A stretch of DNA of 64,000 nt from a virus, in the IMG/VR virus record IMGVR_UViG_3300027769_001114, positions 1 to 64,000 of that record; one strand, written 5' to 3'. Made by a program: the position numbers and the translations under genes. Below the pieces are notes generated by a model. That model saw only the letters and a list, made by a program, of their open reading frames with translations, did not search any database and had not been told where the DNA came from. Below are positions 19,930-43,783 of the stretch, piece by piece; the first letter of the stretch is position 1; each line of letters opens with the position of its first letter.

Positions 19930-21279
19930 ATGTCAGCAGACAAAGCACGCATCAGCGAACTGCAGAACGCACTTCGCAAAAAGATGGCGGACAACAAGAC
20001 CATCGCCGACTCATTCAAGGTCGAAGAAGGCACCGTCGTCGTTTCAACCGAGCAGAAGGCAGCCTTCGACTCAAACATGAGGGACATCAAGGAAATCAAG
20101 GGCCTCATCGAGGGTCTTGAATCCATGGATCAGGTCAACTCGTGGTCGTCAGAACCAGCAAGCGATTCAGTCGGAGCAGCAGCCGCTGCCGGCCAAATGG
20201 CTCGCTCGTCATACGGCGCCAAGAGCCTTGGTCAGTTGTTCCTTGACTCACCCGAGTTCAAGTCGCTTCAGGGCGGCAAGAACGGCGCAAACATGCCCAG
20301 CCCCTTCATTCTCAACAGCGGTGACATCACCAGCCAAGGTTGGGGTCAGAAGGACGTTTACAGCGGTTTGCTCGACACCACCGGCCTTTCATTCACTGGT
20401 TTTGGAACTCGTGAACGCGATGCCTTGGTCATCCCGCCAATGCGCACACGTCGCGTCCGCGACTTGTTCCCGGCACGCACAACCACCGCGGCAGTTATTG
20501 AATACTTCCGTCAGTTGGGCTTCACCACCCCAGGCACCACGGCGGTCAATGCCGCTGCGCCTGTGGCACAACGTAGTGGTGGCGCTTTCGCCGCAAAGCC
20601 ACAATCGTCCATGGTCTTCGAAGGTCATCAGGCTCCAGTTCGTACGCTCGCCCACTGGGAAGCTGCGCACAGGAACGTTTTGGCTGACGAACCGCAGTTG
20701 CGTTCAATCATCGACAACGAGCTCCTCTACGGTCTCCGCCTTCAGGAGGATTACCAAATCCTCAATGGTGACGGTACCGGCGAAAACTTGCTCGGTGTTC
20801 TTGAAACCCCTGGCGTTCAGGAATACGCATGGTCAGACGGCGCAACCACACCAGTTCCGGACACCAAGGCTGATGCGCTTCGTCGCGCCGCGACCTTGGC
20901 TTTCTTGGCCTACTACGAACCGACCGGCATCGTTCTTCACCCGAACGACTGGGAAGATCTCGAACTGACCAAGAACACCCAAGGCACCTACCTCATGGCA
21001 GTTTCCATGCAGGTCGGCTCCGAGGCAAGGGTCTGGCGCATGCCCGTCATCGACACACCGGCAATCGCAGAAGGAACCGCACTCGTTGGTGCCTTCGGAA
21101 CCGGTGCTCAGTTGTACGACCGCGAACAAGCGAACATCCGCATCAGCGAACAGCACGCAGACTTCTTCGTGCGCAATGCGATTGTGATCTTGGCCGAACA
21201 GCGTTTGGCTCTCGCAGTCAAGCGTCCGGAATCGTTCGTCAAGGTTTCCTTTGACAATGAGCCGGCGGAAGCACCCTGA
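19930..21279 (+). CDS. major capsid protein, HK97 fold, with N-terminal delta/scaffold domain
   Basis: LADEPQLRSIIDNELLYGL..QILNGDGTGENLLG; IVLHPNDW; FVRNAIVILAEQRLALAVKRPESF; strong SD and highly biased codons. Confidence 0.95.
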   Translation: MSADKARISELQNALRKKMADNKTIADSFKVEEGTVVVSTEQKAAFDSNMRDIKEIKGLIEGLESMDQVNSWSSEPASDSVGAAAAAGQMARSSYGAKSLGQLFLDSPEFKSLQGGKNGANMPSPFILNSGDITSQGWGQKDVYSGLLDTTGLSFTGFGTRERDALVIPPMRTRRVRDLFPARTTTAAVIEYFRQLGFTTPGTTAVNAAAPVAQRSGGAFAAKPQSSMVFEGHQAPVRTLAHWEAAHRNVLADEPQLRSIIDNELLYGLRLQEDYQILNGDGTGENLLGVLETPGVQEYAWSDGATTPVPDTKADALRRAATLAFLAYYEPTGIVLHPNDWEDLELTKNTQGTYLMAVSMQVGSEARVWRMPVIDTPAIAEGTALVGAFGTGAQLYDREQANIRISEQHADFFVRNAIVILAEQRLALAVKRPESFVKVSFDNEPAEAP

Positions 21280-24187: not shown

Positions 24188-25534
24188 ATGAACAGAATCA
24201 AAGTTCTCTCGCTCTTTAGCGGTGCGGGTGGCCTCGACCTTGGTCTTGAAAGAGCCGGGATGGAAGTCGTCGCATTGTGCGAGATTGACCCAAAAGCAAA
24301 AATGGTGCTTCGTAAGCACTGGCCAGACACATACATTTATGACGACGTGAGAGAGGTAACACGTGAACGACTCATTTCAGACAACATTGTTCGACCAGAC
24401 ATCGTCGCCGGAGGAAGTCCTTGCCAGGACCTCTCCGTTGCCGGACGTCGTAAGGGACTTGATGGATCTCGTTCGGGACTCTTCTGGGAGCAATGCCGCA
24501 TCGCCGACGAAATCGGGGCGGACATCCTCTGGGAAAACGTCCCCGGCGCCCTATCTAGTAACGACGGAGCCGACTTTGCTGCCGTGTTGTGGGGAATCAC
24601 AGGAGCACTCGTCGAGTTGCCCCCTAAGCAGAAGTGGGCCAAGTCCGGCGTCCTGGTGGGACCAAAGCGGACAGCCATCTGGCGTGTTGCCGATGCCCAG
24701 CGTTTCGGAGTTCCCCAAAGACGGCGTCGTATCTACGTTATCGGATGTTCTGGAACCATGGCACGAGGGCTTGCGCCGTTACTGCTTGAGTGCGAGGGCG
24801 GCCAAGGGAATCATTCGTCGGGCCGAGAGACGCGAACGCGTTCTTCCGGAACCGCTTCGGACGGCTCTGGCGACTCTGGCGGCCACAGAGCCGGACGACC
24901 CGGAGGAGACGCGGGAAACGACGGAAACGAAGTAACTGGCTTCGTAAAGTCTCGTAGGGCACAGAGCAATACCGACGACGAAACATGGAAAGAAGGCGGA
25001 GTAGCTCCGACATTGACGTCCTTTGATAATGGAGGGGACTCTCGGGCAACCGTTCTAGCCATTCATGATGAGACGACCTGGTATACCGAGTCGCAGTTTG
25101 CTCAATACGCCAAAGACATCGTTGGCACACTTCGTGCCGCGGGTGGCACTTATGGCGGTGGATCTGAGAATATCGTGGTCACCAAGCCCGAGGTTGCAGC
25201 TTGCCTGAGGAGCGGTGGCGATGGCGGTGTTCCGTCCAGCAGGGGCGAGAACCTCGTTGTTCAGCATCAGTATGACCCAAGGATCATTGGCTTTTCCCAC
25301 ACACAGGGACTTGACCATCAGGCATCGACGACCGTTTTCCCAACCTTGCGTGCCGAGGGTGGCGGACATGCGGTCATGTATGACCCAACCGAACCGCCGT
25401 TGCTATTTCAGCAAAACCAACGAGATGAGGTTCGGATCATGCCGGGTTACGCAGGATCGCTAAATGCCGAGACAGGCATGCACAACACCAACTTTGTCCT
25501 ACAAGACCAAGAGGACGACGGTGTCGTTGACTGA
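24188..25534 (+). CDS. C5 cytosine DNA methyltransferase, catalytic part (motifs I-VIII) plus about 5 TRD-like units; lacks motifs IX-X
   Basis: LFSGAGG, GGSPCQDLS, WENVPG, FGVPQRRRRIY. Confidence 0.92.
   Translation: MNRIKVLSLFSGAGGLDLGLERAGMEVVALCEIDPKAKMVLRKHWPDTYIYDDVREVTRERLISDNIVRPDIVAGGSPCQDLSVAGRRKGLDGSRSGLFWEQCRIADEIGADILWENVPGALSSNDGADFAAVLWGITGALVELPPKQKWAKSGVLVGPKRTAIWRVADAQRFGVPQRRRRIYVIGCSGTMARGLAPLLLECEGGQGNHSSGRETRTRSSGTASDGSGDSGGHRAGRPGGDAGNDGNEVTGFVKSRRAQSNTDDETWKEGGVAPTLTSFDNGGDSRATVLAIHDETTWYTESQFAQYAKDIVGTLRAAGGTYGGGSENIVVTKPEVAACLRSGGDGGVPSSRGENLVVQHQYDPRIIGFSHTQGLDHQASTTVFPTLRAEGGGHAVMYDPTEPPLLFQQNQRDEVRIMPGYAGSLNAETGMHNTNFVLQDQEDDGVVD
24363..24935 (+). CDS. overlapping alternative-frame methyltransferase beta-type polypeptide (M.EcoHK31I-beta-like)
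   Basis: GAGAGG SD 6 nt before GTG 24363; C-terminus STLSDVLE..RYCLSARAAKGIIRRAERRERVLPEPLRTAL. Confidence 0.7.
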   Translation: MNDSFQTTLFDQTSSPEEVLARTSPLPDVVRDLMDLVRDSSGSNAASPTKSGRTSSGKTSPAPYLVTTEPTLLPCCGESQEHSSSCPLSRSGPSPASWWDQSGQPSGVLPMPSVSEFPKDGVVSTLSDVLEPWHEGLRRYCLSARAAKGIIRRAERRERVLPEPLRTALATLAATEPDDPEETRETTETK

Positions 25535-26234
25535 TGGATATAACAACTGTTTCACGCCTTGGCCTGACATGGGGCAGGCAATACGCGTCTACGCAACTGA
25601 CGGCCCCTCGCCAACGATCTCCTCGCACCATGTCCTCATTCTTCAGGAGTTAGAAATGAACGAAGAATCCAGGGCGGAGATGGTTACGCCGATCAGAACA
25701 TCCAACACGAAGGCAAACGGCATGAATGTTGGTGAGCCAGGAGATCCGATGTACACACTTGACACTGGCGGCTCAATGGCTGTCGGGTACGTCCTATGCT
25801 TTGACGGGAAGAGGAACGACGACTTTAGGATGTTTGAGGACTACTACCCGACCCTCACTCAGATGATGGGGACGGGTGGAAATAATGTCCCGATGATCAT
25901 CCACGACATACCAAAGACGGAGGCGACCGAGGTGGACAACATAACGGATACGCAATATCAGAGAGTGCCACCGGAGACCGGAGACGACACCGTTGCAGCC
26001 CTGACAGTATGCGACCTCACTAAGGGACAGGGTTCGCATCAGTCCATCGGGTCGGGTTTTCTTCAGGTCTACGCATTGCCTCAGGCGTACTCCATCAGGG
26101 AGGACGCGAAGGCTAACAACTTCCACGCAACGCCGACGGACACGGCCCTGTGTGTGAACGCACTCCAACCGTCACCACAGTCTCACCACGCTCAGATCTT
26201 TATAGTGCAGGTTGAAGAGGGTCGTAATGCCTAA
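25521..26234 (+). CDS. methyltransferase variable-region ORF made only of TRD-like units
   Basis: SPTIS, DPMYTLDT, YPTLTQMMGTGGNNVP; overlaps the upstream stop (start GTG 25521 or TTG 25527). Confidence 0.75.
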   Translation: MSLTDGYNNCFTPWPDMGQAIRVYATDGPSPTISSHHVLILQELEMNEESRAEMVTPIRTSNTKANGMNVGEPGDPMYTLDTGGSMAVGYVLCFDGKRNDDFRMFEDYYPTLTQMMGTGGNNVPMIIHDIPKTEATEVDNITDTQYQRVPPETGDDTVAALTVCDLTKGQGSHQSIGSGFLQVYALPQAYSIREDAKANNFHATPTDTALCVNALQPSPQSHHAQIFIVQVEEGRNA

Positions 26235-26406
26235 CGACGTCGTCCTGCCTTGCAACATTGACGGCGCACAGATTTCCCCTACATTACGAGGCTTTGGGCA
26301 CGGATGGCAGGGGCAGCACAACAGTACGAACGCAGTATTTCAGTCAATCATATTCAAGTCAGAGGACGACCACCCTGCCGTACTACAGCAGGTCGGCGAA
26401 GAATGA
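26227..26406 (+). CDS. single TRD-like mini-ORF
   Basis: ISPTLRG unit; GAAGAGG before ATG 26227; overlaps both neighbours. Confidence 0.6.
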   Translation: MPNDVVLPCNIDGAQISPTLRGFGHGWQGQHNSTNAVFQSIIFKSEDDHPAVLQQVGEE

Positions 26407-27341
26407 AAGATGTCTACGGTTATGACGAGTACAACGACTCCATCGCCGAGGAACTTCATCACTCGTTGAGAGCCGGCACGAGGCAGTCCGTTGGTGTCGT
26501 TCATCCGTTGCCAGAAGGTGTCCTGTTGTTTGAGCCGAGGTCGATGCGCGAGGAGAACTGGGCCGAGAGTGTAGTTAAGAACGCCCTCAGGGCTGGTGCG
26601 TCAAAGTCGTCGCACGCCGTTGTCTCCTCGGCTGTTGAGACGGAGGAGCCACAGTACGACGAACGACGCATACAGATGCTCAACTTTCAGGGGAGTAAGG
26701 GCAACACCGTGGTATCAGAGGATGGGCAATCGTTCACATTGAACGCCATGCACGGCCATGATATGCACGTGATCGCCTACAACATTATGGGCGCACCGCC
26801 AAGAGAGCCAGATAGACCAAATGGTGGTTACTACATCAACAAGACCGAGGTGACGCAGACACTTGATGCCTTTAGTGGTGGACTAAACCCGGTCGTGAAT
26901 CAAGGTGGACTCGCTATTGTTACCGAATCTTGGCCTGTTGCTTTCCGCGGTAGAGACGGCGGGATGACCGCCGAACAGGGCGAAGAAGGTATCGCCAACA
27001 CGATCAGAGCAGGACAGGGCGGTTCAGTTCGTCCGCATGTATTGACTAGAGAAACCGTCTCAGATAACCTGAACGAAGAACAAGGAGAATATGACATGGA
27101 CGCAAGCACAAGTCTCGTAGTGAGGCGGCTGACCCCGCAGGAATGTGAACTTTTGATGGGCTGGGACTCGGGTTGGACTGAGGTCGGCGTCACTGACAAG
27201 GGTGAACTCGTGCAGATGGCCGACACGCACCGTTACAGGATGTGTGGCAATGGCGTCGTCGCCAATGTTGCCGAGTGGCTCGGTGTTAGGTATCTCGCCG
27301 CTAAGTCGGCGACTGGGGAAGACCCCAAGGACTCGTGGTGA
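26403..27341 (+). CDS. methyltransferase C-terminal part: about 5 TRD-like units plus motifs IX-X
   Basis: VRRLTPQECELLMGW...RYRMCGNGVV; ATGA overlap at 26403. Confidence 0.85.
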   Translation: MKDVYGYDEYNDSIAEELHHSLRAGTRQSVGVVHPLPEGVLLFEPRSMREENWAESVVKNALRAGASKSSHAVVSSAVETEEPQYDERRIQMLNFQGSKGNTVVSEDGQSFTLNAMHGHDMHVIAYNIMGAPPREPDRPNGGYYINKTEVTQTLDAFSGGLNPVVNQGGLAIVTESWPVAFRGRDGGMTAEQGEEGIANTIRAGQGGSVRPHVLTRETVSDNLNEEQGEYDMDASTSLVVRRLTPQECELLMGWDSGWTEVGVTDKGELVQMADTHRYRMCGNGVVANVAEWLGVRYLAAKSATGEDPKDSW

Positions 27342-42305: not shown

Positions 42306-43783
42306 TGCCCGGCGTAGTCGTCAACACAGGAGTTAGGGTCGGAGGCACTGGGGTAGAAGTCGCCCCCAGTAGCACATTCTTCGTGGTCGGAACCGCAGAA
42401 CGCGGTCGCGTTGCTACGCCGTTTGTCGTTCGCAGTATGGCTGACTTTGAGGCAGAGTTCGGCGGATATGACGCAAACTGCACTCTTTATCAACACATTG
42501 AGACATTCTTTGAGGAAGGCGGCATCCGTGCCGTAGTCCAGAGGCTCGTTGGGCCAGACGCAACCGCTGGAACGGTCAGCCTTCTTGACGCCGAAGACGA
42601 TGTCTGTATGACCCTTACTGCAGCCAATGACGGCGCATGGTCATCCAGTATCCTGGTCACGATCATTAAGACATCCAGCACCTACTCGCTCGTCGTCAAG
42701 TTTGATGGCACAACGGTGTTGAGTTCGCCGAGTCTTGCTTCAGTAGCAGAAGGCATCGCCCTCATCAACAGTCGCATCTCAAGCATCGTTGTCGCAACAG
42801 CAGGTGTCTCAAGTCTCATTCCTGCCACTCAGACTGAGTCACTCAGTGCTGGCGATGACGACATTGACAACGTTGCGTTCACAAACGACGACTTCGTCGC
42901 CGCGCTTGACAACTTTGGAGATGACCTTGGCACCGGTGCTGTGGCTATCCCCGAAAAGAATGGCTCAACCATTTGGGGCGGACTCAGGGATCATGCCGAA
43001 GCCACAAAGAGGATCGCCATCTGTGGTTTTGATGAAGCCGATTCTGCAGATGAAGCAATCGCCGACGCCGAAGACTACGCCGGAACCACATCTGGTGCCA
43101 AGTCCATTGCAAGCCATATGGCTTTCTACTGGCCGTCGGTATCGGCTCCAGACGGAAACGGCGCAACGCGCACTTTGTCACCAGAGTCATACGTGGCGGC
43201 AGTTAGGGCCAGGAACATCATCGCCAACAGAGGACCATGGAAGCCTGCCGCAGGCGTTTCGTCTTCAGCGAAGTTTATCGTCGGTCTCGTCAACGATGGG
43301 GTCGCCACCAAGGTCAACAAGACCGTTGGCAATGCTCTTGACGAAGGTCGAGTCAATGCCATCCGAGTCATTGACGGACAGATCCGCATCTACGGTGCGC
43401 GTTCTGCCTCGGCTGACGAAACCAACTGGCGTTACATCACATACCGCGACACAGTGAACCAAATCGCAACTGATTGCGAAAGCTCGCTTGAGAAGTATGT
43501 GTTCAGCCCAATCGACAGCAGGAAGAACCTCTTCGGCGCAATCTCGTCAAGCCTCACCACAATCCTTGAGGTTGTCAAGGACAACGGTGGTCTCTACGCA
43601 ATGGTGGACACCCTTGGCACGCAGGTTGACCGCGGTTACTCAATCGAGGTCTCCGATGCTCTCAACCCGATCACGGAACTTGCACAGGGCAAGATCGCCG
43701 CTAGGGTTGGAGTACGAGTCGCTGGTGTGGCCGACCTGGTCACTCTGACGATCACGAAGTCAACGCTAACAGCAGCACTCTGA
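42305..43783 (+). CDS. contractile tail sheath protein
   Basis: MPGVVV..FVVGTAERG..FFEEGG; PWKPAAG; VNAIR..IYGARS..WRYI. Confidence 0.92.
   Translation: MPGVVVNTGVRVGGTGVEVAPSSTFFVVGTAERGRVATPFVVRSMADFEAEFGGYDANCTLYQHIETFFEEGGIRAVVQRLVGPDATAGTVSLLDAEDDVCMTLTAANDGAWSSSILVTIIKTSSTYSLVVKFDGTTVLSSPSLASVAEGIALINSRISSIVVATAGVSSLIPATQTESLSAGDDDIDNVAFTNDDFVAALDNFGDDLGTGAVAIPEKNGSTIWGGLRDHAEATKRIAICGFDEADSADEAIADAEDYAGTTSGAKSIASHMAFYWPSVSAPDGNGATRTLSPESYVAAVRARNIIANRGPWKPAAGVSSSAKFIVGLVNDGVATKVNKTVGNALDEGRVNAIRVIDGQIRIYGARSASADETNWRYITYRDTVNQIATDCESSLEKYVFSPIDSRKNLFGAISSSLTTILEVVKDNGGLYAMVDTLGTQVDRGYSIEVSDALNPITELAQGKIAARVGVRVAGVADLVTLTITKSTLTAAL

Follow-up and report, generated by a model that had tools for sequence, protein, structure and literature searches.

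The stretch of viral DNA analysed here (64,000 nucleotides, positions 1 to 64,000 of IMG/VR record IMGVR_UViG_3300027769_001114; hereafter the window) carries a gene for a C5 DNA methyltransferase, ORF1, in which motifs I-VIII precede TL-type repeat units. In a profile search, residues 4-187 of ORF1 matched PF00145 positions 1-161 of 324 (E 4.7e-36). Entirely within this gene, one base forward of its frame, lies a second open reading frame (Table 1) that consequently overlaps the coding of motifs IV-VIII, its codon k lying over ORF1 codon k+58. An earlier note on this DNA had described a 190-codon +1-frame gene with its own Shine-Dalgarno (SD) sequence, fully overlapping the methyltransferase gene, and the ORF list and the position of AGAGAGG bear out both points. 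Motifs I-X are all present in the main frame of the window, spread over several ORFs. The ORF at 26304-27341 was aligned to PF00145 positions 257-318 at E 2e-4 and 21.4 bits, slightly below the 22-bit cut-off, and since motif IX resides there the embedded ORF is not the source of this motif in this phage.

Table 1. Features at the methyltransferase locus, in positions of the window.
Feature	Coordinates	Strand	Remarks
Host gene, C5 DNA methyltransferase ORF1, 448 aa	24188..25534	+	PF00145 match
Shine-Dalgarno-like AGAGAGG	24350..24356	+	GTG at 24363 six bases downstream
+1-frame TAA, upstream limit of the ORF	24357..24359	+	stop-to-stop ORF starts at 24360
Overlapping +1-frame gene	24363..24935	+	GTG start, 190 codons and TAA; C-terminus quoted in the earlier note matched in the ORF list
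N-part, residues 1-73	24363..24581	+	over coding of motifs IV-VI; weak constraint, predicted disorder
Middle part, residues 74-125	24582..24737	+	over ORF1 codons 132-183 (motifs VII-VIII); both frames constrained
C-terminal helical domain, residues 126-173	24738..24881	+	main frame here a variable linker
Acidic variable tail	24882..24932	+	close relatives differ in tail length and sequence
Main-frame ORF with methyltransferase motifs IX and X	26304..27341	+	translation and weak PF00145 match

The length of the embedded ORF is by itself ordinary for the window and no better than chance: 26 embedded stop-to-stop ORFs of at least 150 codons are found there, nine of them longer than the one at 24363-24935. 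The weight of the case for a gene lies in the comparative evidence.

Selection on the +1 frame and distribution of the family

The first comparative set was chosen by +1-frame patterns and was biased by this selection; the question was therefore retested on loci chosen by the main frame and on close relatives, and the case rests on these. The window and seven close relatives of 80-99% identity all keep the ORF open at 181-191 codons, and the start region AGAGAGGTAAC-N-CGTG is identical in all eight sequences, with variable synonymous sites nearby. Among these relatives, main-frame third positions were variable in 42 of 58 codons (codons 1-58), 37 of 73 (59-131), 9 of 52 (132-183), 4 of 48 (184-231) and 72 of 75 (250-325), so that variability falls to 8% in codons 184-231 as against 72-96% in the flanks (Fisher p 2e-22). 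In the same 48 codons first positions vary in 26, which is the signature of coding in the +1 frame, and the main-frame residue varies in 25 as compared to 7 for the +1 residue. The earlier note had suggested that selection moves to the other frame beyond motif VIII and had proposed dual-frame codon conservation as a check; third positions indeed vary least where the +1 frame is conserved. The N-part is under looser constraint, its +1 residue being variable in 39 of 73 codons.

A wider and unbiased viral sample consisted of 80 loci chosen solely by methyltransferase main-frame residues 4-183, of which 73 were evaluable. Every one of the 73 harboured a +1 ORF of 119-436 codons that was recognised by the profile of the ORF at E 2e-18 to 2e-52, and none matched it in the +2 frame. 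Stops in the +1 frame of homologues had been named beforehand as evidence against a gene; among 60 non-redundant, main-frame-chosen sequences, main codons 132-231 contained 0 stops in the +1 frame and 229 in the +2 frame, while outside this region the +1 stop rate per codon was 0.071 (columns 1-57) and 0.055 (columns 232-330). Identity across columns 184-231 was 0.51 in the +1 frame and 0.25 in the main frame, and base conservation followed the +1 codon positions in the order 2 > 1 > 3 (0.63, 0.56 and 0.38). The ORF of the window matched the family profile A3, an alignment of 80 +1-frame family sequences, at E 2.9e-46 with no internal stops. Taken together, these data support a genuine, fully overlapping +1-frame gene, with selection shifting to the +1 frame beyond motif VIII.

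Start signals are enriched at the head of the ORF. In a count of 150 loci that were not de-duplicated, an SD of at least 5 bases preceded the first ORF start in 54, compared to 6.9% of 6958 control out-of-frame starts, and a 6-base SD in 28, compared to 1.0% of controls; a simple scan found the first start to lack an SD in 65 of the 150. The N-part was interrupted by a stop in 2 of 80 loci (L074 and L076). The family is constantly linked to this clade of methyltransferases, with the ORF overlapping in +1 at 80/80 viral loci and 79/80 loci from bacterial genomes. An overlapping gene cannot easily leave its host gene, which limits the weight of such constancy. With a more typical family member as the tblastn query, the family was located in 139 named phage records, and at least 186 stretches were confirmed in genomes of bacterial species; tblastn with the ORF of the window and blastn with the gene region found nothing among named phages.

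Predicted structure and contacts of the embedded product

Structure prediction divides the product into a poorly modelled front and a compact rear. Residues 1-120 take no structure in the predicted model, with pLDDT 50-67 for the N-part, and a helical C-domain of about 50 residues is confidently predicted, with helices at 126-129, 135-140, 144-156 and 163-175 and pLDDT 94-98 at residues 141-170. This domain is basic and rich in Arg and Lys. Its invariant residues (L126, L130, R153 and L165) are all found in the ORF of the window, as are the near-invariant L142, S143, A146, G149, I150, R152, A154, R157, L161, P162, A168 and L169.

Searches for relatives of known function returned little. The ORF of the window found no family in Pfam or PHROGs; 80 family members gave isolated single matches to Pfam, all at E 0.012 or worse, and a search of NCBIfam matched two fused forms alone. 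Sequence profile searches of the PDB yielded nothing relevant for the family or for orf14 of Streptococcus phage MM1, and hhalign detected no similarity between the +1 family and main-frame methyltransferases. The fold of the helical domain had no informative match (best VIA Z 4.2 in a wide search, in which no family was prominent among the matches, and best Foldseek E 5.6 against the PDB). Matches in a protein atlas were to unnamed 'hypothetical protein' clusters alone, mostly viral. An equation of the C-domain with the segment after motif VIII of classical single-chain C5 methyltransferases was dropped, as no search supported the resemblance.

Binding was modelled for a homologous pair about 35% identical to the proteins of the window (L024, with a 411-aa methyltransferase and a 155-aa embedded ORF). 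The complex scored 0.82 and the best control 0.00, with contact agreement of at least 79% and partner pLDDT of at least 73 across the runs. Scores this high were obtained for 58 of 80 solved complexes and for 2 of 110 mismatched pairs, counts that give only a rough calibration here because the L024 pair was run with alignments made for the present analysis. W98 and SEFP lie within the middle part, and the equivalent residues of the homologue fall in the predicted interface. As one stretch of DNA encodes both chains and the strongest contacts link segments separated by a few codons in the gene, an artefact of shared sequence constraints is possible. On the strength of the model, the embedded product probably binds the methyltransferase.

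A second line of evidence is the occurrence of fused forms. The ORF extends into methyltransferase parts in 4 of 150 loci: in two (L037 and L064) it continues into motif IX, which is absent from the main frame, and in the other two (L122 and L143) into repeats plus motifs IX-X. Three architectures are thus seen, namely a short ORF, an ORF with motif IX and an ORF with the whole C-terminal half, and the main frame holds complete motifs I-X in 97 of the 150 loci.

Comparison with known systems

The nested arrangement is already published for M.EcoHK31I, Tn5252, phage MM1 and the S. thermophilus 5093-group phages, and the ORF of the window therefore adds a member to a known kind. For M.EcoHK31I, PMC2836561 describes a smaller chain encoded wholly within the methyltransferase gene in another frame, and a beta chain whose N-terminal part governs association with alpha. 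The analogy drawn to this enzyme in the earlier note holds in part. Compared by arrangement and motif content, the small ORF of the window is likewise nested in its methyltransferase gene, and L037 and L064 (2/150 loci) share the motif split exactly, the main frame carrying I-VIII as well as X, and the +1 ORF carrying IX. However, the ORF of the window has neither a PF00145 match nor the motif IX pattern, motif IX being located in the ORF at 26304-27341, so that the proven role of the M.EcoHK31I beta chain is not simply transferable. The need for the small chain is proven in M.EcoHK31I, while for the ORF of the window we infer it. The count of up to five chains put forward in the earlier note is a conjecture.

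The totally overlapping methyltransferase ORF is remarked on in PMC5601072, with reference to Obregon 2003 and to Sampath & Vijayakumar 1998. MM1 (orf13/orf14), the S. thermophilus 5093-group phages and Tn5252 each carry a C5 methyltransferase gene and, completely overlapped by it, an ORF in a different frame, and the MM1-1998 record DQ113772.1 names the pair 'alpha' and 'beta' subunit. The ORF of the window is 30% identical to MM1 orf14 over 63 residues (E 2e-5), and the family member L024 matches MM1 at E 5e-7. In MM1, as in the window, the +1 ORF spans the coding of motifs IV-VIII and stops soon afterwards, and since the MM1 alpha main frame holds motifs I-X, its embedded ORF likewise lacks motif IX. 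The two systems differ in that MM1 has motifs I-X in one chain, whereas the methyltransferase of the window is split over several ORFs with a long repeat region. MM1 orf14 also terminates inside the helical domain, at about residue 156 of the window's product, and the part with R157/L161-P162/L165/A168-L169 is therefore missing.

Phages P1 and P7 provide another likeness, the C5 half of dmt having a 162-codon +1 ORF over motifs VI-VIII and the linker. This ORF of P1 is 39% identical to that of the window over 85 residues (E 3e-12) and is unannotated among the 23 features listed for the dmt stretch in AF234172.1 (535 in the whole record). It occupies about 66713-67201 of that record, and its second ATG is preceded at a distance of 7 bases by GGAG. 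Dmt differs in being one chain, to which a Dam-type domain is fused. A further comparison is with M.AquI, a naturally split C5 methyltransferase. L122 and L143 resemble this type: one ORF encodes motifs I-VIII, and a second, overlapping ORF, which begins with the +1 family module, encodes the target-recognition repeats and motifs IX-X. In the window, by contrast, the +1 ORF ends past the helical domain, and it is the main frame that encodes the C-terminal parts. In the literature searched, tests of an embedded ORF were found for M.EcoHK31I alone and none for those of MM1, the 5093-group or Tn5252, nor was the embedded ORF found described as a widespread family or in P1 dmt; an earlier description, for instance in Obregon 2003 or Sampath & Vijayakumar 1998, is possible. 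Judged from sequence searches, the nested +1 family is much wider than the previously published cases, with its 139 named phage records.

Interpretation and alternatives

The reading we favour, with moderate confidence, is that the ORF at 24363-24935 truly encodes a protein, and that this product docks on the methyltransferase as a small accessory subunit. A very improbable alternative, and one disfavoured by the comparisons, is that there is no gene and the open frame is a by-product of conserved methyltransferase sequence, of codon bias or of a nucleotide signal such as RNA structure. The ordinary length of the ORF would agree with this, as would the N-part motifs of the family, which simply result when motifs IV, VI and VIII are read in +1, and the recognition value of 1727 in the protein atlas, where most known families reach 2300. 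A by-product of the main frame is, however, hard to reconcile with a +1 frame whose conservation peaks where that of the main frame is lowest (0.51 vs 0.25), with base conservation that follows the +1 codon positions, with 0 stops in +1 vs 229 in +2 over the same columns, and with an ORF stop at a constant place and enriched SD-start signals. It is also improbable that the C-domain is reached through a +1 frame change by ribosome or polymerase, giving motifs I-VIII or I-IV fused to the helical domain. The protein clusters P0019 and P0026, in which motifs I-IV come from the main frame before the reading passes to +1, speak for such an event. Against it, no stop interrupts the +1 frame over the 54 or more codons that precede motif VIII in 73/73 loci, +1-specific residues upstream of motif VIII are conserved, the SD-start at the beginning of the ORF is 5- to 19-fold enriched and invariant in the clade of the window, and sequence inspection of 24363-24935 revealed no base runs longer than 5. 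Moreover, +1 frameshifts in bacteria are uncommon where no in-frame stop is present.

A real overlapping gene need not encode a methyltransferase subunit, and its product could be a regulator of expression or timing, a nucleic-acid binder or a counter-defence protein. The evidence of selection fits this equally well, the C-domain is helical and Arg/Lys-rich, and with motifs I-X complete in the main frame of 97/150 loci and in MM1 alpha there is no catalytic gap to fill. We nevertheless hold it rather unlikely, given that the complex model favours binding (0.82, best control 0.00), that fusions of the ORF with parts of the methyltransferase occur in 4/150 loci, and that the family was not seen outside the methyltransferase gene (80/80, 73/73 and 79/80 loci).

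As an accessory subunit, the +1 product would have its translation start at a GTG with an SD of its own, within the methyltransferase gene. Its loosely constrained N-part is probably disordered when alone, and the compact basic helical C-domain is encoded precisely over the part that forms a free linker in the main-frame protein. Docking on the catalytic domain would most likely take place beside the motif IX region and the strand that precedes motif VIII, and a beta-like subunit would help to assemble or stabilise an enzyme that is here split over several main-frame ORFs. The analysis shows the ORF with its start signals, purifying selection on the +1 frame and a steady linkage to this methyltransferase clade; from these we infer translation, binding and a role in methylation for the product. 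Tentatively, and as a possibility to which we give rather less than even weight, the embedded ORF may be an overlooked obligatory second subunit across the phage and prophage C5 methyltransferase clade, including P1 Dmt, with docking needed for activity or specificity and with the beta chains and split enzymes as variants.

Annotations of prokaryotes and phages seldom include long overlapping genes on the same strand that are clearly under purifying selection, since gene callers discard such genes; for the present one the evidence is very clean. Should the product prove to be a subunit or a regulator, studies of orphan methyltransferases of phages must count a second protein, which would touch on specificity assignment, heterologous expression and anti-restriction studies, and recoding or 'silent' mutagenesis of such methyltransferase genes would also strike the hidden gene. 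Should it be an obligatory subunit, the cloned 'single-gene' methyltransferases of the clade would be two-protein enzymes throughout. Taken together, the three architectures are a natural series in which the splitting of genes and the recruitment of a new reading frame can be examined.

An open frame inside the methyltransferase gene

The 190-codon frame claimed in the earlier note is present as described, with an SD sequence and a GTG start. It runs one base forward within ORF1, which encodes the N-terminal portion of a C5 DNA methyltransferase, and host codon k+58 and codon k of the inner ORF have two bases in common. ORF1 residues 4-187 match positions 1-161 of the 324 in PF00145 (E 4.7e-36). 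The source virus record is 130,481 bases long and an estimated 88% complete, and the locus neighbours are capsid, portal and ribonucleotide reductase genes (named from their translations alone). The length of the +1 ORF by itself proves nothing: the window holds 26 embedded stop-to-stop ORFs of at least 150 codons, and 9 of them are longer. Longer same-strand embedded ORFs lie in the capsid gene and in another large gene. The main-frame methyltransferase is split into several ORFs, which does not look like fresh decay because ORF1 is similarly long in close relatives (434-468 aa, contig permitting).

Coordinates of the embedded ORF, its setting and related features
Feature	Sequence	Coordinates	Strand	Codons	Basis or remark
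ORF1, N-terminal part of C5 DNA methyltransferase	window	24188-25534	+	448	PF00145
+1 ORF, GTG start	window	24363-24935	+	190	ORF listing; wholly within ORF1
SD AGAGAGG	window	24350-24356	+		sequence inspection; GTG six bases further on
+1-frame TAA upstream of GTG	window	24357-24359	+		sequence inspection
Methyltransferase, further main-frame ORF	window	25464-26234			
Methyltransferase, small main-frame ORF	window	26212-26406			
Methyltransferase, ORF with motifs IX-X	window	26304-27341			
ORF embedded in capsid gene	window	20081-20968	+	295	
ORF embedded in another large gene	window	42747-43457	+	236	
+1 ORF inside phage P1 dmt	L163	2222-2710		162	AF234172.1, about 66713-67201; record with 535 annotated features
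Stretch with an insertion between main-frame motifs III and IV	L122	2505-3815			
Stretch with an insertion between main-frame motifs III and IV	L152	63-1229			

Scanning metagenomes with ORF1 residues 1-260 returned nine relatives. In the 7 at 80-99% identity the +1 ORF stays open over 181-191 codons, and AGAGAGGTAAC-N-CGTG is identical in 8/8 sequences of the lineage while synonymous sites nearby differ. Third positions of the main frame were compared in seven sequences, leaving out L167 (a duplicate of L166) and the distant or partial L171 and L172; they varied at 42/58 in codons 1-58, 37/73 in 59-131, 9/52 in 132-183, only 4/48 in 184-231, and 72/75 in 250-325 (184-231 versus flanks, Fisher p 2e-22). 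In the same seven sequences residues of codons 184-231 varied at 25/48 in the main frame versus 7/48 in the +1 frame, which bears out the observation of a main frame loosened to a G/S/R stretch at the point where the +1 frame takes over.

Selection on the +1 frame and its mode of expression

Of 326 candidates from a protein search with the +1 ORF, 27 reached E 0.01 or better; most have 109-229 residues and no Pfam domain, and a strongly conserved C-terminal stretch is common to them. Since their N-terminal motifs are what methyltransferase motifs IV, VI and VIII give when read in the +1 frame, these proteins might have been gene-caller artefacts, and a decision required DNA. A scan of viral contigs with +1-frame patterns confirmed 547 of 594 candidate stretches, and 80 loci were kept. 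The +1-pattern match overlapped a C5 methyltransferase match at an offset of +1 in all 80, and the frame was open for 145-308 codons in 78, the exceptions (L074 and L076) having a stop within its N-terminal part; having been selected by the +1 frame, this set is biased.

A second scan used an alignment restricted to main-frame residues 4-183 and returned 80 loci, of which 7 were dropped with the motif VIII pattern unmatched (L084, L108, L115, L123, L149, L156 and L158). All 73 evaluable loci held a +1 ORF of 119-436 codons that fits the ORF profile (E 2e-18 to 2e-52), and a fitting +2-frame ORF was found in 0/73, part of this profile mirroring the methyltransferase motifs. Codons were then threaded on the main-frame alignment for 60 non-redundant sequences out of 74. 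Stops per codon in the +1 frame fell from 0.071 in columns 1-57 to 0.046 in 58-75 and 0.022 in 76-131, were 0 in columns 132-231 (0 stops versus 229 in the +2 frame), and rose to 0.055 in columns 232-330. Residue identity in columns 184-231 was 0.51 in the +1 frame versus 0.25 in the main frame. Base conservation there tracks the +1 codon (0.63, 0.56 and 0.38 at main-frame positions 3, 2 and 1), while in the flanks, with third-position identity of 0.28-0.30, it tracks the main codon; this pattern is typical of protein-level selection on the +1 frame and not of a nucleotide-level signal. The main reading of the earlier note, an overlapping +1-frame gene, is thus supported by the third-position constraint and the kept start, as by the stop counts and dual-frame conservation, and we regard 24363-24935 as very probably a genuine gene.

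Independent initiation of this gene is favoured from the sequence signals at its start. Among 150 loci (not de-duplicated), 54 have an SD of at least 5 bases before the first +1 start, against 6.9% of 6958 control start triplets lying out of frame within the genes concerned, and 28 have one of 6 bases, against 1.0% of these controls; 65 have a first start without an SD. A frame change near motif VIII as the source of the product is a less likely, minor alternative. It would account for the fused protein clusters P0019 and P0026, which carry motifs I-IV in the main frame and switch into the +1-frame protein just past motif IV, a switch that could itself be natural frame switching, mutation or assembly error. 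The SD enrichment, the start kept in the window clade and a +1 frame that is open over 54 or more codons ahead of motif VIII in 73/73 loci speak against a frame change and for independent initiation.

Known systems and breadth of the family

The beta chain of M.EcoHK31I is described in PMC2836561 as lying in a different frame inside the alpha gene and as holding motif IX, and trimming of its N-terminus as weakening association with alpha. The proposed likeness to this chain holds as to nesting in another frame; since the window ORF lacks motif IX, it does not strictly qualify as a beta of the M.EcoHK31I type. It fits instead the type of orf14 of Streptococcus phage MM1-1998 (DQ113772.1), a member of the same family annotated 'beta subunit' and embedded in orf13, the 'C5 methyltransferase alpha subunit', which holds motifs I-X. 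For S. thermophilus 5093-group phages PMC5601072 remarks on 'total overlap ... in different reading frames', with citations for the same layout in MM1 and Tn5252. In view of these precedents the window adds a new member to an arrangement already known. The literature search found no recognition of the breadth of the embedded ORF, and no test of its function outside M.EcoHK31I.

With a typical family member as query, 139 named phage records were matched, with hosts in Proteobacteria, Actinobacteria, Firmicutes, Cyanobacteria and Verrucomicrobia, and in nearly all the methyltransferase alone is annotated. The unannotated ORF in phage P1 dmt is 39% identical to the window ORF over 85 residues. 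A GGAG precedes its second ATG by 7 bases, and initiation at that ATG would yield the M-Q-L-T opening usual in the family. In bacterial species genomes a narrow scan confirmed 186 stretches; the ORF was +1 and overlapping in 79 of 80 loci kept. One kept locus (L211) lies in a contig binned as a Haloarculaceae archaeon (MAG), which could be a haloarchaeal virus or a binning error; the other 79 are from bacterial records or bins of many phyla.

Motif IX architectures and the putative subunit

Sorted by the location of motif IX, the 150 loci comprise 97 with the motif in the main frame and 29 with it in a downstream ORF, as in the window, the +1 ORF lacking it in both; 4 carry it in the +1 ORF, 13 were unmatched by the pattern used and 7 are cut at the contig end. 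In L037 and L064 the main frame has motif X and lacks motif IX, which is the published M.EcoHK31I layout, and in L122 and L143 the +1 ORF extends through TL-type repeats and motifs IX-X, the main ORF ending after motif VIII. As natural fusions these four would tie the +1 module to the methyltransferase, and they may be sequencing frame errors. Within the insertion of L122 and L152 the +1 frame reads a unit resembling the TL-type repeat units of the methyltransferase variable region, and coding roles seem to have passed between the two frames repeatedly.

No fitting family for the product was found in Pfam, NCBIfam, PHROG or PDB sequence searches, and no informative fold match by Foldseek (best E 5.6) or VIA wide (best Z 4.2). 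AlphaFold2, given an 80-sequence alignment, modelled residues 1-120 as unstructured (pLDDT 50-63) and residues 125-176 as four short helices (pLDDT 94-98 over 141-170). A complex was modelled for a homologous pair and not for the window's own: the 411-residue methyltransferase (motifs I-X) and 155-residue embedded ORF of L024, each with an alignment. It scored 0.82, 0.82 and 0.84, the best of three controls scoring 0.00; the mark was reached by 58/80 solved complexes and 2/110 mismatched pairs, counts that hold only roughly for this pair because custom alignments were supplied. The runs share at least 79% of contacts, with partner pLDDT of at least 73. In the model the interface includes +1-specific conserved residues (a Trp followed by N-S-G-M, and an S-E-W-P stretch) abutting the strand before motif VIII, with the helical domain close to the post-VIII linker and to the motif IX region. 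Caution is called for, as a single stretch of DNA encodes the two chains and the best contacts join segments encoded few codons apart, although these contacts are antiparallel and off the trivial codon-sharing diagonal. The best-supported mechanism, which we hold with somewhat better than even confidence overall, is that the +1 product would act as an accessory subunit bound to the methyltransferase within whose gene it is encoded.
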